Positions 10,167-55,615 of a stretch of 64,000 nucleotides of DNA are shown here, one piece after another. Each line of letters begins with the position of its first letter. Position 1 is the stretch's first letter. The notes under the pieces were generated by a model. It saw only the letters and a list, made by a program, of their open reading frames with translations. It made no database searches and was not told where the DNA came from. The translations under genes were made by a program, and so were the position numbers. Source of the stretch: Dictyostelium discoideum (taxonomy: Eukaryota). The stretch is taken from the NCBI GenBank assembly GCA_000004695.1, contig CM000151.3, positions 800,001 through 864,000 on the forward strand, read 5' to 3'.

Positions 10167-11771
10167 CAAATTAAATTAGATTCAATTTATTTAGATGAAC
10201 ATTTTTCAGGTAATGCAAAGATTTTCCATAATCCAGCAGTAGCAGTATTATATGAACAAGCATTGGCATTTGAACATGGATCAGCAATTACAAGTACAGG
10301 TGCATTGGTAACCAGATCAGGTGTAAAGACTGGAAGATCACCAAAGGATAAGAGAATTGTAAAGGAACCATCATCACAAGATGATATTTGGTGGGGACCA
10401 GTCAATATTGCAATGGATGATCTTTCATTTATGATCAATCGTGAAAGAGCCATCGATTATTTGAACACTCAAGAAAAGATCTACGTTATCGATGGTTACG
10501 CAGGATGGGATCCAAAATATCGTATCAAGGTTAGAGTCATTTGCGCACGTGCCTACCATGCTCTCTTTATGCACAATATGTTAATTCGTCCAGCCAATAG
10601 AGAAGAGTTAAGAAATTTTGGAGAACCAGATTACACCATTTACAATGCAGGTCAATTCCCAGCAAATCGTTACACTAAGGGTATGTCTTCAAGCTCATCA
10701 ATCGCCATTGATTTCGCTCGTAAGGAAATGGTTATTTTGGGTACTCAATACGCTGGTGAAATGAAAAAAGGTATTCTCACCATCATGATGTATCTCATGC
10801 CAAAGATGGGTGTCTTACCATTACATTCCTCTTGCAATCAAGCTCGTAACAATGGTGATACCACATTATTCTTTGGTCTCTCTGGTACTGGTAAAACTAC
10901 ATTATCCGCCGATATTAACCGTGAATTAATTGGTGATGATGAACATGTTTGGACCGATACTGGTTGTTTCAATATCGAAGGTGGTTGCTATGCAAAATGT
11001 ATCGATCTCTCTCGTGAAAAGGAACCAGAGATCTTTGATGCCATCAAGTTTGGTGCTGTTTTAGAGAATGTCGTCTACAATGAGTACTCTCGTAAGGTCG
11101 ATTACAATGATGTCTCTATCACTGAGAACACCCGTTGTGCCTACCCATTGGAACATATCCCAAATGCCAAATTCCCAGCTATTGCCGGTCATCCAAAGAA
11201 TATCATTATGTTAACTTGTGATGCTTTTGGTATTCTCCCACCAGTATCTCGTTTAGATGCCAATCAAGTTATGTACCATTTCATTCAAGGTTATACCGCC
11301 AAAGTTGCCGGTACTGAAGTTGGTGTCACCGAACCAACTGCAACCTTTTCAAGTTGTTATGGTGAACCATTCATCGTATGGCATCCAACCAAATACGCTG
11401 AAATGTTGGCTTCTCAACTCCATAAACATTCAGCTCGTGCTTGGTTAATTAATACTGGTTGGACTGGTGGTTCTCATGGTGTTGGTTCTCGTATTAAATT
11501 GGCCTACACTCGTGCCATCATCGATGCCATTCACAGTGGAGAACTTGAAAAAATTCCAACCACTAAAATGGATGTTTTCGGTTTCCAAGTACCAAATAGT
11601 TGTCCAGGTGTTCCATCTGAAATTTTAATGCCAATTAATGGTTGGGCTGATAAAGAGAAATATGTTTCAACTATGCATAAATTGGCTAAATTATTTATTG
11701 AAAATTTCAAAAAATTCCAAGATAAAGCTTCACCAGAACTTGTAGCAGCCGGTCCAATATTACCACAATAA
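9928..11771 (+). CDS. pckA: Phosphoenolpyruvate carboxykinase [ATP]. Exon 1 is 9928..10024; exon 2 is 10210 (or 10195)..11771.
   Basis: The 502-aa ORF holds the PEPCK-ATP kinase-1a motif [11 protein letters not shown]. It also has RSPKDKRIV and the ~[12 protein letters not shown] region, which matches the conserved PEPCK-ATP N-terminal segment (AAVLYE...). An upstream exon [32 protein letters not shown] ends at a GTAAGT donor (10025). Two alternative acceptors (tttag at 10194, ttttcag at 10209) are both in frame. Confidence 0.9.
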
Positions 11772-33212: not shown

Positions 33213-33567
33213 TTAATTACAACCACAACTTGGATGTAAAATTGGATTTGTAATGGTACCAACTGTGTTTAAAACTGATCCCACAATTACACCAGTACCA
33301 ATTAAAACTCCACCAACAAGATTTCCTACTACATTTCCCAAAGTTGGTCCACCACATGGGCTATATTGAATTGAGTTTAATGATTGACTAGATGATGGTG
33401 ATGATGATGAGAATGAAACATTTTTTGATTTTGTAATTGATTTAACATTACCAATTGATGAGATTGAAGCTATAATAAATTAATATTAATATTTATAATT
33501 TTAAAAAATAAACAATTTAAAAACTATATTTTTTTAAATTTTATTATAAATTACCTAAGATTGTCAT
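33213..33567 (-). CDS. HssA/B-like (hssA/2C/7E family) small Gly/Ser-rich protein, divergent copy A. Exon 1 is 33555..33567; exon 2 is 33213..33469.
   Basis: ATGACAATCTTAG|GTAATT (MTIL-G), then an acceptor tattatag. The product is [89 protein letters not shown]. This matches the family layout of a 5-codon first exon, [10 protein letters not shown], a C/G-rich core, and a C-terminal CGC motif. Confidence 0.7.
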
Positions 33568-34238
33568 TTTTAGTTTTTAGTTTTTTTTTTTTATTATTTT
33601 TAAAAAAAAAATTATTTATTTATAGTAAAATAAAATCATATGTTTTTTTTTTTTTTTTTAACTTGTTTGGATAATAAATGATTTCATTTTTTTGATTAAT
33701 ATTAATCAATACAGATTTATTGTTTGAGTTTTAATTGTATGAAATACCAAAAAAAGTAAAAGTTAATCTTTGAAAATGAGATTTTCAAAAAAAAACAAAA
33801 GGATTATAATAAAATAATCTATTTTTTTTTTATTAAAAAGGATAAAAATATTTTTTGGAAAAATGAAAATGATTTGGTGTGTTTAAATCTATAAAAAATT
33901 AATTGCCTTTTTGCAAATGAAAAAATTTTAAATAAAAAAAAAAAAAATAACACAGATTAAAAATTAAATATTTAAATCTGATTTTAATTTGTTAAACCCT
34001 TTTTTAAAATTATTGACTTTTTCTGTTGATTGTTATAATGATAATTGAATGATTACAAAAGTTTATATTAAAACTTAAGATTTTCTTATTCATTTTCATA
34101 TCCTTTTTTTCTTTAAAAATATTAAATTTTAATATTACTCTAATATTTTGAATTTGTTTTGATAAAAATCAATATATTTAAATATATTAATTTTTTTAAA
34201 AGTCAAGTAACATGTAAAGATAAACAAATTATTTTAAA

Positions 34239-34277
<39 letters not shown>

Positions 34278-34355
34278 AATTAATTTAATTTTTACAGTTT
34301 ATTGAATTATTTTTAGTATTTGTTTTAATCTTTTAATTTAAATAATTTTACAGTT

Positions 34356-34685
34356 TTAATGGCAACCACAGTTTGGACCACTTAATAAACCACCAACAAC
34401 ACCATTGACAGTACCAACAATAATACCAGTTCCGACAAGTACACCACCTACGAGATTACCAACAGTACCAATTAATGGACTACCACCACCGCAGCCACCA
34501 CATTGTATTGAATTTGATGATTGTAATGATGAGTTTGATAATGATGAAAAATTATTTGATTTTGAAATTGATTTAACATTACCAATTCATGAGATTGAGG
34601 CTATTTAAAAATAATATAAAATAATTAATTTTAATATTATTTAATGTATATATATATATATATAAAACATACCTAAGATTGTCAT
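34356..34685 (-). pseudogene. HssA/B-like copy B. It has a premature in-frame TGA in codon 9 and a 12-nt in-frame deletion. Exon 1 is 34673..34685; exon 2 is 34356..34600.
   Basis: Exon 1 ATGACAATCTTAG|GTATGT is intact. Exon 2 begins CCTCAATCTCATGAATTGG, which in phase 1 reads A S I S stop. The plus strand has attCatgag where the other copies have attGatgag. Exon 2 also lacks the GTTGGAACTGTC segment. Confidence 0.6.
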
Positions 34686-34837
34686 TTTTAATTTTGTTAA
34701 TTGGAAATTAATTTTTTGATTTAATGATTATAAAATAAAAAAAAAAAAAACCTTTTATATCAAATTTTTTTAAACAAAAATTATTTATTTTTATTTGTTT
34801 TTAATTTATCTTACAAAAAATAAAAATAATAATTAAC

Positions 34838-35037
34838 TATCAATTAAGAAATAATGTGTTAATGGGGGTAATTATTGTGTGTTAATTAATCAACCGAATC
34901 CACCAAGGTTTTGATATGTATAAACTATTAAGTTAATACTTCATATAAATTTTTTTTTTTAAAATTTATATTGTTTCAGTTTAATTGTTCAAACACACAA
35001 TTAACCCCTCATTAACACATTATTTCCTAATTGATAG
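34838..35037. repeat. ~200-bp hairpin element with ~47-bp imperfect terminal inverted repeats (CTATCAATTARGAAATAATGTGTTARTGGGGGTAA...TTAACCCCWCATTAACACATTATTTCCTAATTGATAG). Copy 1, at the axis of hssl pair B/C.
   Basis: The left and right arms are reverse complements at ~90% identity. A ~110-bp spacer is itself partly palindromic. Further copies lie at 36840..37040, 40248..40446 and 42011..42208. A solo right-arm fragment lies at 52781..52806. Confidence 0.7.
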
Positions 35038-35389
35038 TAAATTTAAAGTATTTTTATTTATTTTTAAAGAATTTTTATTTATTCTACTCACACATCATAT
35101 TAAAATTTTTTTTTTTTTTTTTTTTTATTGTGTGGTATAATTTAATATATCTATTATACAAGAAAATAGTTTTTTGAAAATGAGATCTTTTGTGATCTAA
35201 ACAGTTAAATTTCTGAAAAAAAAGAATTTAATTATAATAATAAATTATTTGTTTTTTTTAAATTGATTTTTTTTTTTTTTAAATTTTTTTTTTTTCAAAA
35301 GTTCAAAATAAAAGTATAAATTCTAATTTTATTTCAATCATTATTTCATTAAATTAAACAATCAAAAAAATTTTAAATAAATTAATAAA

Positions 35390-35739
35390 ATGACACTCTT
35401 AGGTAAGTAATTAAATAATTAATTATAGTTTATTAAAAAATAATTTTATTAATTACTTATTTTTTAATATTAAAAAACTTAGCTTCAATCTCATCAATTG
35501 GTAATGTTAAATCAATTTCAAAATCAAATAATTTTTCATCATTATCAAACTCGTCATTACAATCATCAAACTCAATACAATGTGGTGGCTGCGGTGGTGG
35601 TAGTCCATTAATTGGTACTGTTGGTAATCTCGTCGGTGGTGTACTTGTCGGAACTGGTATTATTGTTGGTACTGTCATTGGAACTGTCAATGGTGTTGTT
35701 GGTGGTTTATTAAATGGACCAAACTGTGGATGTCATTAG
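35390..35739 (+). CDS. HssA/B-like copy C. Exons 35390..35402 and 35483..35739. 89 aa.
   Basis: ATGACACTCTTAG|GTAAGT with an acceptor aaaaaacttag. The product is [89 protein letters not shown]. The listed minus-strand ORF 35457..35690 is its antisense. Confidence 0.75.
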
Positions 35740-35934
35740 AACTGTAAAATTATTTAAATTATAATATTTTGTAATCAAAAAAGTTTTTTTATAATAAATA
35801 ACTTTGTATTAATAAAAAATTAAATCCAAAAAAGACTTAATGTTTCATTTTTTATTTTTTTATAATTTTTTTATTTTATTTTTACAATATTGTAAATTAC
35901 AAAAAGAGATTGATTATTTATACTTTTTTAAATT

Positions 35935-36190: not shown

Positions 36191-36348
36191 TTATAATTTA
36201 AAAAACTTAATATTGTATAAAATAAAATATAAACAAATGAATTCAAAAATAATTTTTTTATTTTTAAATAATGAATTTAATTTTTACAGTTTATTGAATT
36301 ATTTTTAGTTTTTGTTTTATATCTATTAATTTAAATAATTTTACAGTT

Positions 36349-36688
36349 TTAATGGCAACCACAGTTTGGACCACTTAATAAACCACCAACAACACCATTG
36401 ACAGTTCCAACGACAGTACCAAGAATAATACCAGTTCCGACAAGTACACCACCTACGAGATTACCAACAGTACCAATTAATGGACTACCCCCACCGCAGC
36501 CACATTGAATTGAATTTGATGATTGTAATGACGAGTTTGATAATGATGAAAAATTATTTGATTTTGAAATTGATTTAACATTACCAATTGATGAGATTGA
36601 AGCTATTTAAAAATAATATAAAATAATTAATTTTTAATTATTTTGTGTATATATTTTTAGATTTTAAAGACATACCTAAGATTGTCAT
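36349..36688 (-). CDS. HssA/B-like copy D. Exon 1 is 36676..36688; exon 2 is 36349..36602. 88 aa (one-codon deletion).
   Basis: MTIL-G|GTATGT, acceptor ttttaaatag. Exon 2 encodes [84 protein letters not shown]. Confidence 0.75.
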
Positions 36689-36839
36689 TTTTTTAATATT
36701 GCTAATTGTAAATTTTAATAGTTTGATTTAATGATTTTTTTTTAAAATAAAAAAACCTTTTATATCAAATTTTTTAAAACAATAATTATTTTTTTTTATT
36801 TATTTTTAATTTATCTTACAAAATAATAATAATAATTAA

Positions 36840-37040
36840 CTATCAATTAGGAAATAATGTGTTAGTGGGGGTAAATATTGTGTGTTAATTAATCAACCGA
36901 ATCTACCGAAGTTTTTATATGTATAAACTATTGTGTTAGTTCTTCATATAAATTTTTTTTTTTAAAATTTATATTGTTTCAGTTTAATTGTTCAAACACA
37001 CAATTAACCCCACATTAACACATTATTTCCTATTTGATAG
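36840..37040. repeat. Hairpin IR element, copy 2 (axis of hssl pair D/E).
   Basis: Same arms as copy 1. Confidence 0.7.
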
Positions 37041-37374
37041 TAAATTTATATTATTATTATTTTTTTTTTTTTTTAGAAGTTTTATTTATTAACACATATT
37101 AATAATTTTTTTTTTTTTTGTGTGGTTTAATTTAGTATATCAATTATACAAGAAAATAATTTTTTGAAAATGAGATTTTTTGTGATTTAAACAGTTAAAT
37201 ATCTGAAAAAAAAAAGAATTTAATTATAAAAATAAATTATTTGTTTTTTTTTTAAATTAATTATATTTTTTAATTTTTTTTTTATTGAAAATAAAAGTAT
37301 AAATTCTAATTTTATTTTCAATCATTATTTCATTAAATCAAACAATCAAATAAACTTTAAAATAAATTAATAAA

Positions 37375-37721
37375 ATGACACTCTTAGGTAAATAATTAAA
37401 ATAAATTGTAGTTTATTAAAAAGTAATTTTATTAATTTATTTTATTTTATAAATTTAAAAAATTTAGCTTCAATCTCATCAATTGGTAATGTTAAATCAA
37501 TTTCAAAATCAAATAATTTTTCATCATTATCAAACTCATCATTACAATCATCAAACTCAATACAATGTGGTGGCTGCGGTGGTAGTCCATTAATTGGTAC
37601 TGTTGGTAATCTCGTAGGTGGTGTACTTGTCGGAACTGGTATTATTGTTGGTACTGTCGTTGGAACTGTCAATGGTGTTGTTGGTGGTTTATTAAGTGGT
37701 CCAAACTGTGGATGCCATTAA
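37375..37721 (+). CDS. HssA/B-like copy E. Exons 37375..37387 and 37468..37721. 88 aa.
   Basis: ATGACACTCTTAG|GTAAAT, acceptor aaaaaatttag. Same protein family. The minus-strand ORF 37442..37672 is the antisense artefact. Confidence 0.75.
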
Positions 37722-37871
37722 ATTTATTAAAATCGATAATGTTTTTTTATAATAAATAAATTTGTATAAATAAAAAATGAATTTCAAAAAAGACTTAACA
37801 TGTTCATTTTTATTATAACTATTTTTTTTTTTTTTTTTTACAATATTATAAATTACAAAAAAAAAGATTGA

Positions 37872-39063
37872 TTATTTATTATGAGTCTTAATTTTTTGAG
37901 AATTTAAATTTTTAACTGATGAGGAGGGACAATTTTCTCTTTTTGATTCATTTGTAGAATATCGAGAGTGATGAGAATAATGAGTTACTGGTTTCCTATA
38001 GTCTGGATATTTTGCAAGAGAATTTATAATAAAATTAGTGGCATCTCTTAAAGTTGGTGGAATTGTGGCAAAGAAATGAGATATACAATAAACTAAAGGT
38101 GGGCATGAAATTATTGCATCATTTCTACTAATACCATCTACAATGTATTTTGAAGCTTTGTCAGTTGTTATAGGTAGTAACATTGGTATATCTTTATAAT
38201 CCAAAGAATCAACTAATGGAGTATAAACAAAACCTGGTATTATTACTGAAACGCCAACACCTCTTGATGCTAAACCATTTCTAAGTATTAACCCAAATGA
38301 TTTTAGGTAACCTTTACTTGATGAATATCCTGCCATTGTATAATCAAAATATGGTGTAATACTTGACATCAAAACCAATTGACCAGATCCTCTTGATTCA
38401 AAGATTGGTACCATTGGTAAAACTGTATTCAAGGTTCCAATTACCTATAATAAATAATTTATTAATTAGTTTTAAAAGAATATCATTACTTTTTATATTT
38501 TTAAAATTATTTAAGATATTACATTTGTGTTTGTAACTGTTAATATTCTTTCAGTAAAATCTAATTCTTTTGGTAACATTGCTGGAATTTTTTTTTTAAA
38601 TATAAATAAATATATTAAGAAAACCAATTTTTTTTTTTTTAAAAAAGTAATTATACTGACTTTCAACAGTTCCAGCATTTGCAATTAAAATATCAATTTT
38701 ATATTTATTATCAAATTTAATTAACCAATCATATAATTTTTCTTTGTCAGTGACATCAATTGATTCAATTTCTACTTGAACACCAAGATCCAAACATTCT
38801 TTTTGAATTTCTTCTAATTTTTCAATGTTTCTTCCAGTTAAACCTAAAACCAAAGAATTATTGGTTTTTCTTTTTGCATATTCAAGTGCTATTCCTCTAC
38901 CAATACCAGATGATGCACCCGTGATAACTATTGCTTTTGGTGTTGGGAAATTTGTTTTCTTTTTTTTATAATTTAAAAAACCTAATATAGGATAAAATAT
39001 TAAAAGAATCATTGAACCAATTATATTGGTCAACAATAAAGATATATCAGTTAGCACTGCCAT
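37872..39063 (-). CDS. Membrane-anchored short-chain dehydrogenase/reductase (SDR), copy 1. Exons 38661..39063, 38523..38581, 37872..38444.
   Basis: N-terminal TM helix (LTDISLLLTNIIGSMILLIFYPILGFL). Rossmann motif ITGASSGIGRGIALEYAKRK. NAG motif ILIANAGTVE. Catalytic YSSSK in exon 3. The splice sites are GTCAGT (38655-38660) with ttccag (38582-38583), and GTAATA (38517-38522) with ttattatag (38445-38446). Phases 1/0 are consistent, and the same sites occur in copy 2. Confidence 0.8.
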
Positions 39064-39130
39064 TCTTATTATTAATTTTTTTTGAAAAATTTAAATTAAA
39101 AAAAAATTTAAATTAATAAAAAAAATTTAA

Positions 39131-39168
<38 letters not shown>

Positions 39169-39382: not shown

Positions 39383-39645
39383 TTTAATATAAAATTAAAT
39401 AATTAAATAAATCATTTTAAATCTAATTTTAATTTTAAAAACATTTTACAAAGATTAAAATCAGATTTAAAATAACTTTTTCTTTAGTTAATCAAATAAT
39501 AATTAAATAATTTCAAAAGTTTATATTTATACTTTTTTTTTTTATTCATTTTCATATTCACTTTTAATAAGATTATCATAAAAAATTCTGAATTGTTTTA
39601 ATGAAATAAATTTATTAAATATTTTAAAAAAATGAATTCAAAATT

Positions 39646-39680
<35 letters not shown>

Positions 39681-39760
39681 AATAATGAATTTAATTTTTA
39701 CAGTTTATTGAATTATTTTTAGTATTTTTTTATATCTATTAATATAAATAATTTTCAGTT

Positions 39761-40107
39761 CTAATGACATCCACAGTTTGGACCACTTAATAAACCACCA
39801 ACAACACCATTGACAGTTCCAACAACAGTACCAAGAATAATACCAGTTCCAACAAGTACTCCACCGACGAGATTACCTACGGTACCAATTAATGGACTAC
39901 CACCACCGCAGCCACATTGAATTGAATTTGATGATTGTAATGACGAGTTTGATAATGATGAAAAATTATTTGATTTTGAAATTGATTTAACATTACCAAT
40001 TGTTGAGATTGAAGCTAAGTTTTTAATATTAAAAAATAAATAATTAATAAAATTTTTTTTTAATAAACTACTATTAATTATTTTAATTACTTACCTAAGA
40101 GTGTCAT
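39761..40107 (-). CDS. HssA/B-like copy F. Exon 1 is 40095..40107; exon 2 is 39761..40014. It is plus-slot type (MTLL-G|GTAAGT) sitting in a minus-strand slot.
   Basis: The revcomp of cttacctaagagtgtcat gives ATGACACTCTTAG GTAAGT. Exon 2 encodes [84 protein letters not shown], then a TAG stop. Confidence 0.75.
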
Positions 40108-40247
40108 TTTATTAATTTATTTAGAGTATTTTGATTTAATGATTTATTAAAAAAAAAAAAAAAAAAAAAATCCTTTTATATCAAAATTTTTTATAACAAT
40201 AATAACAACGTTTATTTGCTTTTAATTTATCTTAATAATAGTAATTA

Positions 40248-40446
40248 ACTATCAATTAGGAAATAATGTGTTGGTGGGGGTAAATATTGTGTGTTAATTA
40301 ATCAACCGAATCTACCGAAGTTTTTATATGTATAAACTATCGTGTTAGTACTTCATATAAACTTTTTTTTTAAATTTATATGTTTCAGTTTAATTGTTCA
40401 AACACACAATTAACCCCACAATAACATATTATTTCCTAATTGATAG
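40248..40446. repeat. Hairpin IR element, copy 3 (axis of hssl pair F/G).
   Basis: Same arms as copy 1. Confidence 0.7.
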
Positions 40447-40760
40447 TAAATTTATATTATTATTATTATTTTTTAAAAAAAGTTTTATTTATTCTTCTCA
40501 CACACATTAAAAATAATAATATTTTTTTTTTTGTGAGGTTTAATTTAATATATCGATTATATAAGAAAATAATATTTTGAAAATAAGATTTTTTGTGATT
40601 TAAACAGTTAAATATCTGAAAAAAAGAATTTAATTATAATAATTAATTATTTGTTTTTTTTAATTTTTTTATTTTTTTTATTCAAAATAAAAGTATAAAT
40701 TCTAATTTTATTTTCAATCATTAAATTAAACAATCAAATAAACTCTAAATAAATTAATAA

Positions 40761-41112
40761 AATGACACTCTTAGGTAAGTAATTAAAATAATTAATAGTA
40801 GTTGATTAAAAAATAATTTTATTAATTATTTATTTTTTAATATTAAAAAACTTAGCTTCAATCTCAACAATTGGTAATGTTAAATCAATTTCAAAATCAA
40901 ATAATTTTTCATCATTATCAAACTCATCATTACAATCATCAAATTCAATTCAATGCGGTGGCTGCGGTGGTGGTAATTCATTAATTGGTACTGTTGGAGG
41001 TCTTGTTGGTGGTGTACTTGTTGGAACTGGTATTATTGTTGGTACTGTCATTGGAACTGTTAATGGTGTTGTTGGTGGTTTATTAAGTGGTCCAAGCTGT
41101 GGATGCCATTAA
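40761..41112 (+). CDS. HssA/B-like copy G. Exons 40761..40773 and 40856..41112.
   Basis: MTLL-G|GTAAGT with an acceptor aaaaaacttag. Exon 2 encodes [11 protein letters not shown]...[53 protein letters not shown]. Confidence 0.75.
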
Positions 41113-41274
41113 AATAATGTTTTTTAGAATAAATAAATTTGTATATATAAAAAATGAAATTCAAAAAATACCTAACACCTTTCTTTTTTTTTTTTTATTA
41201 TTTGTTTTTAATTTTTTTATATAATTACTAAAATTGAATTTTTTTTTTTTTTTTTTAAAAATTAATTACACTGA

Positions 41275-41400
41275 CTTCCAACTGTTCCAGTATTTGCAAT
41301 TGATCAATTTGATGTTTATCATCCAAATTTAATTAACTGATCTTTATATTTTCTTTGTCAGTGACATCATAAAAATTCTGAATTTGTAGTTATAAAATGT
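41275..41400 (-). pseudogene. Short decayed SDR exon-1 remnant (fourth ancestral copy).
   Basis: cactgacttccaactgttccagtatttgcaattga...tttctttgtcagtgacatc aligns to the 3' end of SDR exon 1 (38650..38760). Confidence 0.45.
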
Positions 41401-41528
41401 AACATGTAAAGATTAACAAATGAATTCAAAAATAATTTTTTTTTTTTTTTATTAATTTAATTTTTACAGTTTATTTGAATTATTTTTAGTATTTGTTATA
41501 TATTTTTTAATTTAAATAATTTTACATT

Positions 41529-41870
41529 TTAATGGCAACCACAGTTTGGACCACTTAATAAACCACCAACAACACCATTGACAGTTCCAACGACAGTACC
41601 AACAATAATACCAGTTCCTACAAGTACACCACCCACAAGATTACCAACAGTACCAATTAATGGACTACCACCACCACAGCCACCACATTGAATTGAATTT
41701 GATGATTGTAATGACGAGTTTGATAATGATGAAAAATTATTTGATTTTGAAATTGATTTAACATTACCAATTGATGAGATTGAAGCTATTTAATAATAAA
41801 ATAAAATAATTAATTTTTAATTATTTTGTGTATATTTTTTAGATTTTAAAGACATACCTAAGATTGTCAT
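41529..41870 (-). CDS. HssA/B-like copy H. Exon 1 is 41858..41870; exon 2 is 41529..41785.
   Basis: MTIL-G|GTATGT, acceptor aaatag, full-length 89-aa product ending ...GPNCGCH. Confidence 0.75.
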
Positions 41871-42010
41871 TTTTTTAATTTTGTTAATTGTAAATTTTAA
41901 TAGTTTGATTTAATGATTTTTTTAAAAAAAAAAAAACCTTTTATATCATAATTTTTAAATTTTTTTATTTGTTTTTAATTTATCTTACAAAAAAAAAAAA
42001 TAATAATAAA

Positions 42011-42208
42011 CTATCAATTAGGAAATTTATGTGTTAGTGGGGGTAAATATTGTGTTAATTAATCAACCGAATCTACCGAAGTTTTTATATGTATAAACTA
42101 TCGTGTTAGTACTTCATATAAACTTTTTTTTTAAATTTATATTGTTTCAGTTTAATTGTTCAAACACACAATTAACCTCACAATAACATATTATTTCCTA
42201 ATAGATAG
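42011..42208. repeat. Hairpin IR element, copy 4 (axis of hssl pair H/I).
   Basis: Same arms as copy 1. Confidence 0.7.
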
Positions 42209-42562
42209 TATATTTTTATTATTATTTTTTTTTTAAAAAAAGTTTTGTTTTTTCTTCTCACACATATCATATAAAAAATAATAATAATAATTTTTTTTTT
42301 TTTTTTGTGTGGTTTAATTTAATATATCGATTATACAAGAAAATCGTTTTTTGAAAATGAGATTTTTTGTGATTTAAACAGTTAAATATCTGAAAAAAAG
42401 AATTTAATTATAATAATTGATTATTTGTTTTTTTTTTTAAAATTAATTATATTATTTAATTTTTTTTTTTTATTCAAAATAAAAGTATAAATTCTAAATT
42501 TATTTTCAATCATTATTTCATTAAATCAAACAATCAAATAAACTTAAAAATAAATTAATAAA

Positions 42563-42912
42563 ATGACACTCTTAGGTAAATAATTATAATTAATTATAGT
42601 TTATTAAAAAAGTAATTTTATTAATTATTTTATTTTATAATATTAAAAAACTTAGCTTCAATCTCATCAATTGGTAATGTTAAATCAATTTCAAAATCAA
42701 ATAATTTTTCATCATTATCAAACTCATCATTACAATCATCAAATTCAATTCAATGTGGTGGCTGCGGTGGTGGTAGTCCATTAATTGGTACTGTTGGTAA
42801 TCTCGTCGGTGGAGTACTTGTTGGAACTGGTATTATTGTTGGTACTGTTGTTGGAACTGTCAATGGAGTTGTTGGAGGTTTATTAAGTGGTCCAAACTGT
42901 GGATGTCATTAA
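42563..42912 (+). CDS. HssA/B-like copy I. Exons 42563..42575 and 42656..42912.
   Basis: MTLL-G|GTAAAT, acceptor aaaaaacttag, 89-aa product. The minus ORF implied in the track is antisense. Confidence 0.75.
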
Positions 42913-43066
42913 AATAAATGTTTTTTTATAATAAATAGCTTTGTACAAATAAAAATGAAATTCAAAAAGATTTAATACATTTCTTTTTTTTTTATTATTT
43001 ATTTTTTTATTTTTTATTTTTACAATATTTATTTTTAAATTAGAAAAAATGATTAATTATTTATTA

Positions 43067-44242
43067 TTATGCCTCTTTATTTTTTTGAGAATTTGAATTC
43101 ATAGCTGGTGAGGAGGGACAATCCTCTCTTTTTGATTCATTTGTTGAATATTGAGAGTGATGAGAATAATGAGTTACTGGTTTACTATAATCTGGATATT
43201 TCAAAAGAGAATTTGAAATGAAATTAGTGGCATCTCTTAAAGTTGGTGGAATTGTGGCAACGAAATGAGATATACAATAAATTAAAGGTGGGAATGAAAT
43301 TATTGCATCATTTCTACTAATGCCATCGACAATGTATTTTGAAGCTTTGTCAGTTGTTATAGGTAGTAACATAGGTATATCCTTATAATCCAAAGAATCA
43401 ACTAATGGAGTATAAATAAAACCTGGTGTTATTACTGAAACGCCAACGCCTCTTGATGCTAAACCATTTCTAAGTATTAACCCAAATGATTTTATGTAAC
43501 CTTTACTTGATGAATATCCTGCCATTACATAATCAAAATATGGTGTAATACTTGACATCAAAACCAATTGACCAGATCCTCTTGATTCAAAGATTGGTAC
43601 CATTGGTAAAACTGTATTCAATGTTCCAATTACCTATAATAATTTATTAATTAGTTTTAAAAGAATATCGTTACTTTATATTCAAATTATTTAAGATATT
43701 ACATTTGTGTTTGCAACTGTTAATATTCTTTCAGTAAAATCTAATTCTTTTGGTAAAATTGCTATGAAAATTATTTTTTTTAAATAATTAATACAAGTAA
43801 ACCTTTTTTTTTTTTTTAAAAAAAATTATGTATACTGACTTTCAATAGTTCCAGCATTTGCAATTAAAATATCAATTTTATATTTATTGTCAAATTTAAT
43901 TAACCAATCATTTAATTTTTCTTTGTCAGTGACATCGATTGATTCAATTTCTACTTGAACACCAAGACCCAAACATTCTTTTTGAATTTCTTCTAATTTT
44001 TCAATGTTTCTTCCAGTTAAACCTAAAACCAAAGAGTTATTTTTTTTTCTTTTTGCATATTCAAGTGCTATTCCTCTACCAATACCAGATGATGCACCCG
44101 TGATAACTATTGCTTTTGGTGTTGGGAAATTTGTTTTCTTTTTTTTATAATTTAAAAAACCTAATATAGGATAAAATATTAATAGAATTATTGAACCAAT
44201 TATATTGGTCAACAATAATGATATATCAGTTAAGACTCCCAT
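43067..44242 (-). CDS. Membrane-anchored SDR, copy 2 (paralog of 37872..39063). Exons 43840..44242, 43703..43761, 43067..43633.
   Basis: Nearly identical to copy 1. It has the same TM N-terminus, TGASSGIGRG, the GTCAGT donor (43834-43839), the middle 59-nt exon (ILPKELDFTERILTVANTN), and YSSSKGYIKSFG in exon 3. Confidence 0.8.
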
Positions 44243-44655
44243 TCTTATTATTTTTTATTTTTTTTGAAATGAAAAAAAAAAAAAATTATTAAATGGCAAA
44301 AACTCAATCAAAAAAAAAAAAAATAAATAAATAAAAAAAATAAAAATAAAATAAAATAAATCTGATTCCAAAGATATTTTTAGATTTTTTTTATTTTTTT
44401 TTTTTTATTTTTCCCAAATAAGAATTTAATTAAATAAAAATTGAATAATTAAATAAACCAAAATTAAAAAATAAAATATAAAAAACAAATTACTTTAATT
44501 AGAAATTAATTTATAAAAAAAAAGAAAAAAGAAAATTGTGAAATAAATTTTTTAAAATTATGGAGCATATAAAAAGAACAAATTTTTTTTTTATTATTTC
44601 CAATATTATTATTTATATTTTAAAAAATAAACAAATAAACAAATAAAAAAAAAAA

Positions 44656-45699
44656 ATGTTTAAACAAATAATTATATTTATAGCTTTAATACTTTTTATT
44701 TTTAATCAATTGGATATAGTATCAAGTTGTAGATGTGATTCAGATTGTGAAGATTGTAACGAATGTACATTAGATACCTGCTCCCGTGGATGTTGTTCAA
44801 ATATTGAAATAGATTGTGCTGATGATAATCCATGTACCAAAGATTCATGTTCCAAAGAGACTGGTTGTATTCATGAAGATATTAATTGTGATGATGGTGA
44901 TGCTTGTACAACTGATTCATGTTCTCAATTATCTGGTTGTTGTAATTTACCAATCTCTTGTGATGCTTGTACAACCGATTCTTGTTTAAATTCCACTGGT
45001 TGTTGTAGTTTACCAATCTCTTGTGATGATGGTGATGCTTGTACAACTGATTCATGTTCAAAGAAAACTGGTTGCAGTAATGTTCCAATTGCATGTGATG
45101 ATGGCAATGCTTGTACCAATGATGGTTGTTCAAAGGAAACTGGTTGCACTCATTCTAATATCGATTGTGATGATGGTGATGCTTGTACAACTGATTCATG
45201 TTCAAAGAAAACTGGTTGCTGTAATGTTCCAATTGCTTGTGACGATGGTAATGCTTGTACCACTGATGGCTGTTCCAAGGAAACTGGTTGCACACATTCT
45301 AATATCGACTGTGATGATGGTGATGCTTGCACTACTGATTCATGTTCTAAAAAGACTGGTTGCAGTAATATACCAATGTCTTGTAATGATAATGATGCTT
45401 GCACAACCGATTCATGTTCAAACTCTACTGGTTGTTGTAATTCCCCGATTTCATGCGATGATGATCATGCTTGTACCACCGATAGTTGTTCTAAAGAAAC
45501 TGGTTGTTGCAATTCCCCAATCTCTTGTGATGATGGTGATTTGTGTACCACCGACAGTTGTTCTAAAGAAACTGGTTGTTGCCATACTCCAGTTTCATGC
45601 GATGATGGAGAAGATTGTACAACTGACACTTGTTCATCAAAATTAGGATGTGTTCATACCTATATCACTATTTCTCAACCAAAACCTGTTGATTGTTGA
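44656..45699 (+). CDS. Secreted Cys-rich protein built of ~13 tandem 24-aa Dictyostelium CTDC-type repeats. 347 aa.
   Basis: Signal peptide MFKQIIIFIALILFIFNQLDIVSS. The repeat unit is C(D/N)DG(D/N)ACTTDSCSK(K/E)TGC(C/S)N(V/I)PI(A/S). It is the 24-residue Cys repeat of EcmA/EcmB-type extracellular matrix proteins (Pfam Dicty_CTDC). The overlapping ORFs 44882..45133, 44925..45149, 45023..45646 and 45150..45404 are repeat-frame artefacts. Confidence 0.7.
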   Translation: MFKQIIIFIALILFIFNQLDIVSSCRCDSDCEDCNECTLDTCSRGCCSNIEIDCADDNPCTKDSCSKETGCIHEDINCDDGDACTTDSCSQLSGCCNLPISCDACTTDSCLNSTGCCSLPISCDDGDACTTDSCSKKTGCSNVPIACDDGNACTNDGCSKETGCTHSNIDCDDGDACTTDSCSKKTGCCNVPIACDDGNACTTDGCSKETGCTHSNIDCDDGDACTTDSCSKKTGCSNIPMSCNDNDACTTDSCSNSTGCCNSPISCDDDHACTTDSCSKETGCCNSPISCDDGDLCTTDSCSKETGCCHTPVSCDDGEDCTTDTCSSKLGCVHTYITISQPKPVDC

Positions 45700-49539: not shown

Positions 49540-50921
49540 TTAATTGTCAAGAAATATAATGAGTGCGAGGTAGGCTGGATTATAAAAAACCGTCACTTTC
49601 ATCTTTTATTGTATATACTTAAAAAAGATATTGAAAAAAGGGACCAATTCACAGAAAAATTATTTTATAAATTTTTAGAAGGTAATAGTGAATTAGATTT
49701 ACTTAAAGAAATGTTTTAACTATTCCCACAGTTTTTACCATCAACTCCAATGGCCGAAAATATTGTTCAAGTTTAAAACCAACTAAAAACCCATCATTCT
49801 TCTTTATTATCTTCAGAATTTTCTTCTTCTTTATTATCTTCTTCATCCGATACTTCATCTGATACTTCTTTTTCTTCACTCGATTCTTTTTCAAATGAAG
49901 AATTTACTGAAAAATCTTATGATTTTGCTTTTTAATCTCCATATGATTCATTTGTTAAATATTTTATAATATCTAAACTAGAATATAAAAGTAACAAATA
50001 GAGAATGCATGTTATGCTAATAATTGTAAAATTGTGGGATATTATCTTGGTTTAAATCAACTCGATAGATACTAAGGGAGTGAAATTAATATTTATAAAC
50101 ATTGTGATTTTATTGCTCATTGAGGGGTAAAGATTTTCAACTATTCAAATTTATTTTTGATAAAAATCCAAGACTAATTCGTGAATGTGTATCCTCTGAA
50201 CAATTTATAAAATTATTGGTAAGAACCGGTGATGTCCAATTCGTTATTTACTTTTGTAAAATTCAAGGACCTTCTTTTAAACCTCCACTATTACAACCAC
50301 ATATGATCGCAAAATCATCATTAAGCATAGTTATATTCCTATGCTCACTTTTAAGAGTAAAGGGCTCTGCCTATTATAAATCATTATTATATGCTATTGA
50401 TAAAAGGAAGAATAAAAGCGAGAGATTGCTACTTTTAAGAGTCCTTATTGAAGAATCTATGAAAAGGTTGATGATGGTTTAGTAGTGCAAGATGTAGTTT
50501 ACTCATTCTGCAGAATTGGTGATTTAGATTGCATAATATACCTCCGTGATATTTTCTCAACTACCACGAAAACATAGTTATAAGTTTATGGTTTCATGTT
50601 TCGCCTTGGATGTACCAATATCTTCAAAAAAAATTTCATGTAACTGATTGGATTTTAGAAAATACAAATGTATGTTGTTCAAATCTTGGTTTACAGTACC
50701 TTTGCATAAATATCACCAATCTTAAGCATATACTCGATAGAATATTAATAAAATTTGTACCCAAAGGTGTAATCTCAAGTAATATGCTTTTGAATGCAAT
50801 GCATTCAACAAATAAAATTGCTCATGATAAAGAAAACTTAGATTATCTAGCTTCTTTTTTACCAAATCATTTAATCCCTACTTTTCCAATTGAAACCTCA
50901 ATAGAGGATTTTGACAATTAA
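49540..50921 (+). pseudogene. Decayed 5'-truncated tandem duplicate of the gene at 51193..52713.
   Basis: Alignable to the downstream gene from codon ~28 (KDLIVKKYNECEVGWIIKNRHFHLLLY...) to the C-terminus (...PNHLIPTFPIETSIEDFDN). It is interrupted by multiple stops and frameshifts. Only fragmentary ORFs survive (50120..50482, 50610..50921). The 3' flank is also duplicated (50991..51090 matches 52831..52920). Confidence 0.75.
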
Positions 50922-51073
50922 TAGATTTTGACTATTAGTAATAATAAAAATAATAATAAAAATTAAAAACTAATAAAAAAATAATAAATTTAATTACTTT
51001 AAACGAAATAAAAAAGTTATTTATATATTTCCTATATGAAATGATACTAATAATATATTTGTTGTTTTTTTCT

Positions 51074-51108
<35 letters not shown>

Positions 51109-51192
51109 TCTTGCAACAATTTGTTTTTTTTTTTTTTCAAATTTATTTTTTATTTTTTTTTTTTCCTCAATCTTAAAAAAACAATCATCAAA

Positions 51193-52713
51193 ATGGATAA
51201 TTTATTTAGATTAGTATTTAAAAATGTAATTATTAGAAATCAAATATTTAGGTTTGTTAGAATTTTAAACAAAGATTTAATTGTGAAGAAATATAATCAG
51301 TGTAATATGGGCTGGATTATAAAAAATGGTCACTTTCATCTTTTATTGTATAAACTTAAAAAACATATTAAAAGGGACCAATTCTCAGAAGAATTATTTT
51401 ATAGATTTTTACAAGGTAATAGTGAATTACATTTACTTAAAGATATGTTTAAAATATTCCCACAGTTTTTACCGTCAACTCCAATTGCTGAAAATATATT
51501 AATTGAACATTGTTCAAGTTTAAAACCAACTAAAAACCTATCACCCTCTTCTTCTTCATATTCTCCAAACTTTTCTTCTACTTCAGTATCTTCTTCTTCA
51601 TCTGATTCTTCTTTTTCTTCAATTGATTCTTCTTCTTCTTCTTCTTCTTCTTCCAATCAAGAATTTTGTGAACAATCATATGATTATGATTCCTCTTCTC
51701 CATATGATTCTAGTTTAGATATTATAAAATATTTAACAAATGAATTAAATATAAAAGTAACAAATAAAGCAATAAATAATGCATGTGCAGCTAATAATTG
51801 TAAAATTGTGGGATATTATCTTGGTTTAAATCAACTCGATAGATACAAAGGGAATGAAATTGATATTTATGATAATTGTAATATTGGTACTTTATTTTGC
51901 TCATTGAGGGGTAAAGATTTTCAATTATTTAAATTTATTTTTGAAAATAATCCAAATTTAACTTCTCAATGTATAAGCTATGACAAATTTATAAAATTAA
52001 TGGTAGCAACAGGTGATATCCAATTCATTATTCACTTTGGTAGAGTTCAAGGACCTTCTTATAAACCTCCACAATTACAACCATATATGATCGCAAAATC
52101 ATCATTAAGTATAATTAAATACCTATGCTCATTTTTAAAAATAAATGACCCTATGTATTATAAATCATTATTATATGCTATTGAAAAAAGGAAAAATCAA
52201 AGCGAGAGATTCCTACTTTTAAAATTCCTTATTGAAGAGTTTAGAATCTATGAAAAGGTTGAAGGTAGTACAGTGGTGCAAGAAGTAGTTTACTCATTCT
52301 GCGGTATCGGTGATTTAGATTGCATAATATACCTCCGTGATTTTTACTTAACTCTACCACAAAATCATAGTTTTAAGTTTTTAATTCCACGTTCCGCCTT
52401 GGATGTATCAATATCTTCAAAAAATTTTCATGTAACTAATTGGATTTTAGAAAATACAAATGTATGTTGTTCAATTAATGGTTTAAGGTACCTTTGCAAA
52501 AATATGGCCAATCTTAAGCATATACTTGATAGAATATTAATAAAATTTGTGCCCATTCGTGCAATCTCAAGTAAAATGCTTTTGGATGCAATGCATTCAA
52601 CAAATAGAATTGCTCATGATAAAGAAAATTTTGATTATCTAGCTTCTTTTTTACCAAATCATTTAATCCCTACTTTTCCAATTGAAACCTCAATAGAGGA
52701 TTATGACTATTAA
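51193..52713 (+). CDS. Dictyostelium-specific protein of unknown function, with a Ser-rich low-complexity segment. The intact member of a tandem pair, ~506 aa.
   Basis: Continuous ORF from ATGGATAATTTATTTAGA (MDNLFRLVFKNVIIRNQIFRFVRILNKDLIVKKYNQCNMGWIIKNGHFHLLLYKLKK...). I recognised no domain. The ORF-track start at 51106 lies in poly-T and is rejected. Confidence 0.55.
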   Translation: MDNLFRLVFKNVIIRNQIFRFVRILNKDLIVKKYNQCNMGWIIKNGHFHLLLYKLKKHIKRDQFSEELFYRFLQGNSELHLLKDMFKIFPQFLPSTPIAENILIEHCSSLKPTKNLSPSSSSYSPNFSSTSVSSSSSDSSFSSIDSSSSSSSSSNQEFCEQSYDYDSSSPYDSSLDIIKYLTNELNIKVTNKAINNACAANNCKIVGYYLGLNQLDRYKGNEIDIYDNCNIGTLFCSLRGKDFQLFKFIFENNPNLTSQCISYDKFIKLMVATGDIQFIIHFGRVQGPSYKPPQLQPYMIAKSSLSIIKYLCSFLKINDPMYYKSLLYAIEKRKNQSERFLLLKFLIEEFRIYEKVEGSTVVQEVVYSFCGIGDLDCIIYLRDFYLTLPQNHSFKFLIPRSALDVSISSKNFHVTNWILENTNVCCSINGLRYLCKNMANLKHILDRILIKFVPIRAISSKMLLDAMHSTNRIAHDKENFDYLASFLPNHLIPTFPIETSIEDYDY

Positions 52714-52961
52714 TAATAATAAAAATAATATTAATAAATAATAATAATGCATCTATCCAAAAAACATAAAATTTACCCCCACTAACACATTATTTCCTAT
52801 TGATATTTTTTGTAATAAAAATTAAAATAATAAATTTAATTACTTTAAATGAAATAAAAAATTTATTTATATTTAGTTCCTATATGAAATGATACTAATA
52901 GATTTGTTGTTTTTTTTTCTTTTTAAATTTAATATTTTATAAACTTTTTTTTTTTTTTTTT

Positions 52962-53053: not shown

Positions 53054-54011
53054 TTAATGATTTGAAGAGCAACAAGAAAGTAAAGTTTTTAATTGAGTTT
53101 GAATGACTTCATTAGTTTGTTGTAAAAGTGAATTTCTATTTGCTAATAATTCCTTACTATTTTTTAATCTTGATGTATCCTCCATTAGTTGAGATAAAGA
53201 GGTAGTTGCTTTTGCACCAAGATTTTCCAACTCTTGGAGTTCTTTTCTCAATTTTTTGTTTTCATTAAATAATACCTCTCTTTCTCTTTCCATTCTTTCA
53301 AGTTTTGTAACTAAAGAACGCAAACTAAATGATAATGATACAAGTGATGAATTTGTAGTTGATCCATTTGAATAGTCATCATAATTATTTCCGGAATCAA
53401 ATGAATTTGAATTTCTTTTTCTTTTTCCATTTTCATTTTGTTCGTTATAATCTTGTTGATTATTATAAAATTGTTGTGTTTGTTGATGATGTTGTTGTTG
53501 TTGTTGTTGCTGTTGTTGTTGCTGTTGTGGTGGTGGTTGATGTTGTTGTTGCTGTTGTTGTTGCTGTTGTTGTTGTTGTTGTTGAGTGTGTTGGTATTGA
53601 TGATGTTGTTGGTATTGTTGTTGTTGTTGTTGTTGTTGCTGTTGCTGTTGTTGGTGTTGTTGTTGTTGAGGTCCATTTAAATGAGAGGGGAAAATTGAAT
53701 GTTGTTGAGATGATGTTGGTGACTGTTGCTGTTGTTGATGATGTTGTTGTTGCTGCTGTTGTCCACCATTTATCATGCTATTATACTGTAAGAATATTTT
53801 ATCATTTCCTTTATTATACAAATGTTGTTGAGTTTGAATTTGTGTTGGTTGATTTGATTTTTGTTTATCCTCCATTGTCTGAGTTCTTTTTCTACCTCTG
53901 TTAGCAGCTGTTGTCGTTGTAGTGGTTGTTGTTGTCGTTTGCTGTTGATTTGAATTTGATGGTGAATAGGAATTATTATTATTACCATTACTATTATTAT
54001 TATTATTACTA

Positions 54012-54081
<70 letters not shown>

Positions 54082-55611
54082 TACTATTATTTGTATTATT
54101 ATTGGTATTATTGGTATTATTATTATTATTGTTATTGATATTGTTACTGTTAATGTTATTATTGCTATTGTTATTATTATTTGGTGCAATTTTTGGTAAA
54201 ACTACAATAGGTTGAGAAGTTGAATTATTATTATTATTATTTGATTGTGATATTTGTTGAAGTTTATTTGATAGATATTGATGATCAGTTTCAATATTTC
54301 TTGAAGAGATTTTATTTCCATCTCTAGCTTTATCGATCATAACCAAAGTATTTTCATTTTCTTCATCATTTTCATCGTCATAATTCATTTGAGAATTGTT
54401 TTGGTGATGTTGATTTTGGATATATTGTTGTTGTTGTTGTTGTGCTTGTTGTTGATATTGTTGTGCTTGTTGTTGTAATTGTTGTTGTTGATACAATGAT
54501 CTTCCATTATTACTCACTTTAATATTTCTATTTACAAGAGACTCGACTGAAGATAAAATTTCAATATTATTTCTACTATTATTATTATTGTTGTTGTTGT
54601 TGTAACTATTATTATTGGTATTAAACTCTCTATCTCTATCCCTATCTCTTTCTCTATCTCTATCTCTTTCTCTTTCTCTATCTCTATCTCTATCTCTTTC
54701 TCTTTCTCTTTCTCTTTCTCTTTCTCTTTCTCTTTCTCTTTCTCTTTCTCTTTCTCTTTCTCTTTCTCTTTCTCTTTCTCTTTCTCTTTCTCTATCCCTA
54801 TCTCTTTCTTTTGATTGGTTGGGCGAATTATTGTAATTATTATTATTGTTGTTGTTGTTATTATTATTATTATTATTTTTATTATTATTATTTTGTACTG
54901 ACACAGTTGTTGTATTAGGTGTAGAATGTGATGATGATGGACTATTCAATTGATTTAATATTTTAATTGTTGAATCATTTTCAAAATTATTAGTTTGTTC
55001 GGAGGATGGGGAATCTTCTCTATTTGTGTTGTTGTAGTTGTTATTATTTGATTTTTTGGATGATTGTTCATAATCATCGTGGAGGTCTTCAATTAGGTTT
55101 CTATTGAGTTTATTGGAACCATTAACACCTTTATTTGATCTTTCGTCATCATTATCATCAATCTCCATTTGTTCTCTCTCTTTTTCATTTTTTTCTTTTT
55201 CTTCATCATCACTATTATTTTCATTTTTATTATTATTATTATTATTGTTATTGTTATTATTATTATTATTATTATTGTTGTTGTTGTTGTTGTTGTTGTT
55301 GTTATTAATAATTTCGCTACTATCATCGTCATCAAAAGCAATTTCCTTTTCTTTATCCTTTTCTATGTCTCTTTCTCTTTCTCTTTCTTTTTCTTTTTCT
55401 TCTTTTTCACTTTCTCTTTCTTTTTCTTTTTCTTTTTCTTTTTCTTTTTCTTTTTCTTTTTCTTTTTCTTTTTCTTTTTCTCTTTCATTCTCTTGAGGAG
55501 GTTGTGGAGAATTTGGATCTTTTTGTGAATCATTTTCACCACTTATTTTTGAATCAATTTCTTGGGCATCTTCATTTTTGTTATTAATTGAAGCTGTAAC
55601 AGTTTCGATTT

Positions 55612-55615
<4 letters not shown>
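53054..55615 (-). CDS. Highly repetitive low-complexity nuclear-type protein. It has poly-N, poly-Q, (ER)n, (EK)n and a poly-T(hr) run, plus a basic patch and a C-terminal coiled-coil/leucine-zipper-like region. 853 aa.
   Basis: Single long ORF. The basic segments are RGRKRTQTMEDKQK and NGKRKRNS. The C-terminus is LVTKLERMEREREVLFNENKKLRKELQELENLGAKATTSLSQLMEDTSRLKNSKELLANRNSLLQQTNEVIQTQLKTL. The (ER)n comes from a (TCTCTT/GAGA) DNA tract at 54615..54836. Overlapping plus-strand ORFs (poly-L, poly-V, poly-Y, SL repeats) are artefacts. Confidence 0.6.

Follow-up and report, generated by a model that had tools for sequence, protein, structure and literature searches.

Palindromic units between divergent sigN Group 2 gene pairs of Dictyostelium discoideum as the probable core of a common bidirectional promoter

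The DNA analysed here is a 64-kb stretch (the window), whose composition of about 20% G+C, with long A/T runs and (AAT)n tracts, is typical of Dictyostelium. Unfiltered BLAST and a whole-window repeat finder are dominated by A/T low-complexity matches, and filtered BLASTN and profile HMM were the usable searches. An array of about 9.7 kb holds seven intact genes, one pseudogene and one diverged ninth member of the hssA/2C/7E family (Pfam PF05710, E 1.8e-26). The ATG codons lie at 34685(-)/35390(+), 36688(-)/37375(+), 40107(-)/40762(+) and 41870(-)/42563(+), so that the pairs, here termed A to D, are divergent and the palindromic unit described below falls in the 5' region common to both genes. 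Genes start with ATGAC(A/C)(A/C)TCTTAG|GTA, in which a 13-nt exon 1 is followed by an intron of 72-81 nt and then by exon 2, and the products of the seven intact genes are 88-89 aa long. Pair A consists of A1 (34359-34685, minus strand), a pseudogene of sigN type whose codon 9 is an in-frame stop, and the intact sigN-type gene A2 (35390-35741, plus strand; 89 aa, exon 1 of 13 nt, intron of 80 nt), which is sigN6-like. The remaining pairs are intact throughout and comprise B1 (36347-36688, minus; 88 aa, sigN12-like) and B2 (37375-37722, plus; 88 aa, sigN7-like), C1 (39759-40107, minus; 88 aa, sigN11-like, with a 5' end of R type as defined below) and C2 (40762-41130, plus; 89 aa, sigN8-like), and D1 (41526-41870, minus; 89 aa, sigN14-like) and D2 (42563-42926, plus; 89 aa, sigN9-like). 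The diverged ninth member (33216-33616, minus) is sigN10-like and has no arm of the palindrome upstream. Convergent Pro/Thr-rich ORFs around the unit were rejected, being artefacts read from the strand opposite the Gly-rich exon 2. When four sigN proteins and two neighbouring ORFs were looked up exactly, the protein collection gave no match, and a homology search with a sigN protein returned a single match, a D. dimigraforme protein whose locus (L001) lacks the arm.

The array is very probably the sigN Group 2 cluster of D. discoideum chromosome 2. Thirteen sigN genes were studied by Vicente, Galardi-Castilla, Escalante & Sastre 2008 (BMC Microbiol 8:1; PMC2257962), whose Group 2 comprises sigN6, 7, 8, 9, 11, 12 and 14, with sigN10 nearby, in about 10 kb of chromosome 2; the deleted Group 2 interval is 819699-829288 (9.6 kb). 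In these genes exon 1 measures 13 nt, the introns are 71-80 nt long and the encoded proteins have 88/89 aa; the genes are paired as 7/12, 9/14 and 8/11, sigN6 being unpaired (PMC2257962). The assignment is based on a one-to-one match of the lengths and pairing of our seven intact genes with Table 1 of that paper, the introns each being 1 nt longer here; the span of the array (about 9.7 kb) also agrees with the deleted interval of 9.6 kb. The pseudogene A1 explains why sigN6 appears unpaired.

As the original prediction held, four long imperfect palindromes lie between the divergent hssA-family pairs, and BLASTN recovers them as units of about 200 bp. With 34838-35037 as query, BLASTN finds four full-length copies in the 64-kb window, all in one common orientation (34838-35037, 36841-37040, 40250-40446 and 42012-42208), the other copies being 88.6-93.5% identical to the first, and one extra arm-only match at 52761-52805. 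Delimited by their arms, the units are A (34836-35039; L arm 34836-34890, R arm 34985-35039), between pseudogene A1 and the sigN6-like A2; B (36839-37042; L arm 36839-36893, spacer 36894-36987, R arm 36988-37042), between the sigN12-like B1 and the sigN7-like B2; C (40248-40448; L arm 40248-40302, R arm 40394-40448), between the sigN11-like C1 and the sigN8-like C2; and D (42010-42210; L arm 42010-42062, R arm 42156-42210), between the sigN14-like D1 and the sigN9-like D2. Alignment of the eight arms and the solo copy gives an arm length of about 52-55 bp and the consensus ACTATCAATTAGGAAATAATGTGTTA(G/A)TG(-/T)GGGGT..ATTGTGTGTT, of which ACTATCAATTAGGAAATAATGTGTTA is the strongly conserved outer half, with two G-box heptamers (TGGGGGT and TGTGTGT) coming next. 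A profile HMM built from the eight arms yields nine matches in the 64 kb, namely the eight array arms (E 1e-12 to 1e-16) and the solo arm (E 1.2e-8); beyond these nine, the best remaining match in the window reaches only E 1.5. The L and R arms of a unit are 69-79% identical in gapped global alignment, 73-81% in a second comparison and about 86% over the best core of about 47 nt; the arms are thus longer and less alike than the roughly 47 bp and 90% identity first proposed.

The two arms are separated by a spacer of about 92-95 bp, which had been described as partly palindromic. This holds for a single local stem of 11 bp, composed of A and T only, at about 34944-34972; the two halves of the spacer as a whole are no more complementary than shuffled sequence (z 0-1). 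Fold prediction bears out the hairpin: single-stranded DNA of copy A has a predicted energy of -47 kcal/mol (z = -9.5). The unit is closer to the left ATG (140-151 bp) than to the right one (314-353 bp), and its axis lies 86-106 bp to the left of the ATG midpoint, and likewise of the axis of the gene inverted repeat, rather than exactly on the symmetry axis of the pair. It also stands out as an island of higher G+C content, 21-28% against 8-10% in the flanks.

The long predicted stem might suggest a hairpin RNA gene, in which the unit is transcribed and processed to small RNAs from a miRNA-like precursor, the more so as most miRNAs of D. discoideum originate in intergenic hairpins and are subject to developmental regulation (PMC6161686). 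Such a gene is scarcely credible here, however: no Rfam match is obtained at E <= 1, the arm core was not found in one supplementary file of PMC6161686, a loop of about 95 nt is atypical of a miRNA precursor, and the differences between L and R arms, which are single-base indels in the G-run, are not compensatory. A full-text literature search for the arm strings returned unrelated papers only. A likeness of ACCCCACA to DUSE, the upstream element of small-RNA genes, was set aside, the match being inexact and no RNA family having matched.

The surroundings of the unit indicate how its four copies arose. The four complete ATG-to-ATG intergenic regions align at a mean identity of 89%, with no fall at the edges of the 200-bp unit. 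Self-comparison of 33-45 kb reveals direct repeats of 1.6-3.0 kb, each of which carries a gene pair with its promoter and some of which also carry the SDR gene: 36225-39165 versus 41408-44341 (90%), holding pair B with a short-chain dehydrogenase gene and pair D with the duplicate of that gene; 34261-35921 versus 36253-37879 (87.5%); and 39575-41242 versus 41366-43036 (84%). The continuous alignment together with these direct repeats implies that the units were copied passively, along with the genes and promoters. The junctions of the duplications fall in the tail-to-tail regions, away from the palindromes.

This pattern bears directly on the proposal that the unit is a MITE-like mobile hairpin, that is, a non-autonomous DNA transposon of which the 200-bp unit or the 52-bp arm was inserted between the genes and once at 52.8 kb. 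The small size, the inverted terminal arms (about 52 bp, 73-81% identical) and the strong predicted hairpin agree with such an element, and small hairpin-forming transposons do exist in D. discoideum (thug-S; PMC4894637, PMC6161686). However, no element boundaries are seen, similarity between copies running on through the intergenic regions and into the genes, and both the orientation of the unit and its distances from the genes are constant across the four copies. A search for target-site duplications at the units and at the solo arm found only a trivial AATT or TA beside the units and nothing at the solo arm. No further arms were found in about 148 kb of Dictyostelium sequence outside these arrays and the one solo site, and a metagenome scan for the arm core gave 0 matches. 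The sigN unit resembles MITEs and thug-S in its length of about 200 bp, its inverted arms and its hairpin-forming capacity, and differs from them in lacking target-site duplications and discrete boundaries, in showing no independent insertion sites in the sequence scanned, in the limited likeness of its arms (73-81%) and in having been duplicated together with its flanks.

The arm-only copy 10 kb from the array, which counts on the transposon side, deserves closer description. The fragment initially placed at 52781-52806 is a real solo arm, although the string quoted for it spans 52771-52806; we delimit it as 52762-52808 on the minus strand and assign it to the L-arm type, with the first G-box intact and the second decayed. 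It shares the exact 19-mer AATGTGTTAGTGGGGGTAA, for which 0.03 chance matches are expected with up to 3 mismatches, and this 19-mer together with the HMM score removes the worry that it might be a chance AT-rich match. The solo arm is located between the stop codons of the convergent ORFs 51106-52713 (plus) and 53054-55615 (minus), 49 bp past the stop codon of the former, a 535-aa ORF with a truncated paralogue at 50120-50921, so that it does adjoin a tandem-duplicated gene and pseudogene pair as first noted. The paralogous 3' flank (about 50921-51100) aligns on either side of the arm and lacks the approximately 43 bp that hold it, an indel that would fit a mobile element; the arm sits in one of the two tandem gene copies, away from their junction. 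No sigN coding relic was found near it. Promoter function is unlikely for this copy, given its 3' intergenic position.

A solo element is also present at the equivalent site, between the orthologous genes, in the D. cf. discoideum assembly GCA_054859205.1 (L003), where the flanking DNA is about 7% diverged, and it must therefore be old. A second strain thus has the solo site occupied, and the paralogous flank offers the sole comparison of the 'empty' kind. In L003 the similarity extends over about 85 bp, from the arm into L-type spacer (AAACTGAATCTACCGATATTATATGTAT versus CAACCGAATCTACCGAAGTTTTTATATGTAT in the array), which marks it as a promoter fragment and not a discrete mobile unit; the second G-box is decayed in both strains. 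The simplest reading of these sequences is that the solo copy is an old, decaying ectopic copy of part of the L-side promoter.

Syntenic loci were retrieved, with the neighbouring dehydrogenase as anchor, from three D. discoideum or D. cf. discoideum assemblies and from D. dimigraforme; their single-copy flanks are 91-94% identical to the window. D. discoideum GCA_054859385.1 has three pairs, each with the unit (3/3), and in L003 all of four pairs carry it (4/4). The array of D. cf. discoideum GCA_054859235.1 (L005) is rearranged: it contains two units, and a single further arm stands about 20 bp away from a broken gene. The comparison of copy number that the original prediction called for thus gives 4, 3 or 4 complete pairs, or a rearranged set. 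No complete pair without the unit was found in the three other D. discoideum or D. cf. discoideum assemblies, which is a further point against insertion. Taken with the age of the solo copy and its continuation into spacer, the evidence leaves a transposon origin highly improbable. Strain-to-strain footprinting is uninformative, as the copies are 86-95% similar, between assemblies as within them, which is much like the 91-94% of the single-copy flanks.

In L005 one complete intergenic module is inverted relative to its neighbour, with the short and long promoter sides both flipped; a copy with an apparent divergence of 65% is this inverted module and was rejected as a case of divergence. As the flip takes in both promoter sides, its breakpoints must lie in or beyond the gene inverted repeats, which are 400-460 bp long and 83-88% identical, and not in the 52-bp arms. 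The flipped module, the lone arm abutting a broken gene, the differences in array structure among assemblies and the position of the solo arm beside another tandem duplication could all be ascribed to a recombinogenic cruciform, a hairpin that extrudes or stalls replication and so seeds duplications, copy-number changes and inversions. Diverged arms and a long spacer make a poor substrate for cruciform or hairpin formation, however, and the arms here are 73-81% identical with a non-palindromic spacer of about 92-95 bp between them. Moreover, the duplication junctions are tail-to-tail, the gene repeats in or beyond which the flip breakpoints lie suffice for homologous recombination, the spacer is never flipped in orientation relative to its flanks, and the solo arm is off the junction of the neighbouring duplication. 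That the palindrome drives rearrangement of the array is therefore very unlikely.

D. dimigraforme (L004) has one divergent pair, whose several G-rich boxes all lie on the same strand and in which neither arm homology nor a palindrome was found; on the sequences compared, only the D. discoideum complex has the palindrome. The sigN pairs of Group 1 reportedly lack it too and show similar expression (PMC2257962). The palindromic arrangement is thus dispensable for having such a gene pair.

What the palindrome preserves is best seen by comparing the L and R sides of each pair. Since all copies are recent, conservation from copy to copy is little informative, and it is the older L/R split that carries information. 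Exon 2 is 88-96% identical between the L and R genes of a pair (z 27-33 against shuffles), and the arms are 73-81% identical (z 5.7-7.7 against shuffles). Everything else compared is at background: the introns (65-69%, z 1.1-2.6), the proximal 70 bp (63-67%, z 0.4-2.3), the distal promoter (z -2.0 to 1.6) and the two halves of the spacer (50-54%, z 0-1). The arms fit the description of preserved islands in otherwise randomised non-coding DNA, as expected of a functional cis-element.

An alternative is that this likeness is a non-functional by-product, the arms being alike through occasional inverted-copy gene conversion or recent origin and not through regulatory selection. Patchy conversion does operate in the array, in that exon 2 is highly similar between L and R while the intron is at background and C1 has acquired an R-type 5' end, and the absence of the palindrome in D. 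dimigraforme counts on the same side. However, L-type and R-type arms carry diagnostic differences that are fixed in 4/4 copies, which means that the arms have not been homogenised recently; an isolated 52-bp conversion tract amid unalignable sequence in every pair would be unlikely; and the arms carry the motif class implicated for these genes, of which sigN12 is reported to depend on GBF. On balance we regard a by-product as unlikely, though less so than the mobile, recombinogenic or RNA-coding hairpins considered above.

The motif class in question is that of the transcription factor GBF, whose sites consist of two closely spaced boxes. In the L arms TGGGGGT and TGTGTGT lie 13 nt apart, as at 36866-36885 on the plus strand (TGGGGGT at 36866, TGTGTGT at 36879), with equivalent matches to the heptamer consensus at 34863/34876, 40275/40288 and 42038. 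The R arms carry ACACACA with CCCCACA or a degenerate variant, and matches to the consensus lie on the C strand at 34993, 36996/37008, 40402/40414 and 42164. Some heptamers are degenerate in the R arm of A and in both arms of D. Paired boxes are spaced 12-15 nt, and the 64 kb contain seven close pairs of G-boxes on one strand, five of them inside arms. The consensus itself is loose, matching about once per kb in the window. It is the heptamer (T/G)G(T/G)G(T/G)G(T/G) quoted for GBF in PMC2257962 (GBF: Schnitzler et al. 1994, cited there), where the putative GBF sites are described as 'pairs of closely located' sites.

In the same study the promoters of adjacent inverted sigN genes were found to be alike, 'indicating their palindromic structure', and the palindromic promoter was described as having four G-rich boxes that make up regions A and B, each with two putative GBF sites (PMC2257962). 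As each arm holds a putative G-box pair, the arms correspond to these regions. The system reported there and the one described here agree in several respects: the genes form divergent 88/89-aa pairs, exon 1 measures 13 nt, the intergenic region is palindromic and its four G-rich boxes fall into two pairs, and the origin lies in repeated inverted-tandem duplication, given in the paper as successive duplications of a tandem of two inverted genes (PMC2257962). LacZ placed under the complete upstream intergenic region of sigN9, which by the present gene assignment is that of pair D, was expressed in prestalk cells, the onset of sigN expression was at 10-12 h, and sigN12, by the same assignment B1, was GBF-dependent in a microarray study cited by the authors (PMC2257962). 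The arms therefore resemble the G-boxes and CA-rich elements bound by GBF in post-aggregative Dictyostelium genes in their fit to the heptamer, their close pairing, their position upstream of genes expressed at 10-12 h and the reported GBF-dependence of one such gene; unlike established GBF elements, they are putative sites, several of which are degenerate in copies A (R arm) and D.

Taken together, these data make it likely, in our judgement, that the unit is the GC-richer core of a bidirectional promoter common to each divergent sigN Group 2 pair, built of two inverted modules of about 52 bp with putative GBF sites and amplified together with the genes. Of the three possibilities offered by the original prediction, it is the bidirectional cis-regulatory module that finds support, and for this very locus it had been published in the form of the palindromic sigN Group 2 promoters (PMC2257962). 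The present work contributes the anatomy of the unit, its co-duplication with the genes, the L/R footprint, the G-box content and a comparison of other strains and species in which the unit is present, varied or absent; the literature contributes the activity of the full intergenic reporter, the GBF-dependence of sigN12 and the timing of expression. Most likely, an old inverted duplication of one gene with its promoter left the palindrome as its trace, after which non-coding sequence apart from the module would have decayed, and the block of pair plus promoter would then have been amplified by tandem and segmental duplication to four copies. Each module would recruit GBF, a post-aggregative zinc-finger factor, and perhaps another factor on its outer half, and would most likely induce the adjacent gene, or both, in prestalk cells at about 10-12 h. 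At a distance of 10 kb, the solo copy would be a decayed ectopic fragment of an L-side module with adjacent spacer. We infer that the arms themselves would be the GBF-responsive elements and their palindromy incidental; as a hairpin, whether of DNA or of RNA, the palindrome probably plays no part.

A compact block of factor sites between co-regulated divergent genes is familiar from histone H2A-H2B pairs and from the yeast GAL1-GAL10 UAS. In contrast to these, the sigN block is itself duplicated in inverted form, with one module per gene, as a residue of inverted duplication.

The essentials of this promoter have been known since 2008 (PMC2257962), and the current view of Dictyostelium gene regulation is unchanged by our results. 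The earlier paper treats only the G-boxes, in a figure; new here are the extent of the arm (about 52 bp) including its outer half, which has no G-box, the asymmetric position of the unit, the statistics of the L/R footprint, the pseudogene paired with sigN6, the relic arm at 52.8 kb, and the differences in copy number, orientation and presence among assemblies. For annotation, the hairpin would be entered as the known sigN Group 2 promoter core and not as a transposon or structural oddity. The sharper definition of the module (52 bp, a non-G-box outer half, decayed flanks) offers a design for mutagenesis of GBF-dependent bidirectional regulation. The natural variation of the array is documented as well: the number of pairs is three to four, one module is flipped, one copy survives as a relic, and D. 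dimigraforme lacks the palindrome.

A more speculative extension, which we hold to be unlikely, is that a promoter module of about 52-85 bp (the arm with adjacent spacer) can be copied ectopically by a mechanism other than transposition, for example templated repair or patch conversion, and would thereby seed GBF-type sites elsewhere, the solo copy being a surviving example, and that natural strains would differ in promoter orientation and pair number on account of the nested inverted repeats, and expression would be affected.

Among 13 copies from the four assemblies, the arms are 93.5% identical, the spacer 92% and the flanks 87%; the excess of the arms over the flanks is modest (93.5 versus 87%) and partly reflects the proneness of flanking A/T runs to indels. 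Within the arm, variation is lowest in the outer 26 bp, which contain no G-box, so that GBF may not be the only or even the main factor, and another factor at the outer half may be the real ligand. On the long side of the promoter, a further conserved block (37114-37238, plus strand) includes a third G-box, TGTGTGG, at 37119 (equivalents at 35129 and 42306). The 100-bp block 37139-37238, this third G-box and the last 85 bp before the right ATG are each as conserved as the unit itself.

Within the divergent sigN-type gene pairs, exon 2 of the left gene is 88–96% identical in nucleotide sequence to exon 2 of the right gene (window 36347–36688 versus 37375–37722, and likewise in pairs A and D), and in the same pairs the intron immediately 5′ of exon 2 shows left–right similarity equal to the shuffled background. 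Taken together, these two levels of similarity point to exon-restricted gene conversion or to nucleotide-level constraint on sigN exon 2. The similarity is intriguing because a frame-shifted hssA reportedly keeps its activity, as relayed in PMC6198379.

In pair C (window 39759–40162), the left gene carries a right-type 5′ end, comprising the MTLL start and an 80-nt intron, and this is the only pair in which the proximal promoters of the left and right genes are significantly similar (40108–40162 versus 40761–40706, 79%). The combination indicates that a local conversion event took place in pair C. A further conserved promoter block (window 37114–37238, with equivalents in copies A, C, and D) is confined to the long side of the palindromic promoter unit, i.e., toward the right ATG; the short side carries nothing equivalent. 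It contains a third G-box, TGTGTGG, ~90 bp past the right arm in the direction of the right ATG.

Paired with the sigN6-like gene is a pseudogene, at window 34359–34685 (−), whose reading frame is interrupted by a stop at codon 9; the remainder of its exon 2 is nevertheless 94% identical to the paralogues. Three Pro/Thr-rich ORFs (34405–34608, 35457–35690, and 37442–37672) returned by mechanical ORF finding were rejected as artefacts, being antisense readings of exon 2 of the sigN genes, which is Gly-rich; such ORFs would misguide prokaryote-style annotation.

The number of gene pairs varies by assembly, with four in the window, four in D. cf. discoideum GCA_054859205.1, three in D. discoideum GCA_054859385.1, and a single pair, lacking arms, in D. 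dimigraforme. The second D. cf. discoideum assembly (L005, GCA_054859235.1) holds a rearranged set of sigN pairs, in which one complete intergenic module (13284–13946) is flipped relative to the adjacent module and a broken sigN exon 2 has a lone arm (11627–11679) ~20 bp away.

On the minus strand, two copies of a two-exon short-chain dehydrogenase gene (PF00106; window 37872–39063 and 43067–44242) belong, together with two sigN pairs, to a ~5.2-kb segmental duplication. Just beyond the second dehydrogenase gene, a 72-bp unit forms a tandem array of at least eight copies at 67–84% identity (44888–45691), probably within a repeat-containing coding region. Farther along, a gene is tandemly duplicated at 50120–50921 and 51106–52713, the upstream copy being fragmented; the 535-aa ORF product of the downstream copy has no Pfam match. 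The 3′ flanks of the two copies can be aligned apart from an indel of ~43 bp, which corresponds to the solo arm, the arm copy outside the sigN array.
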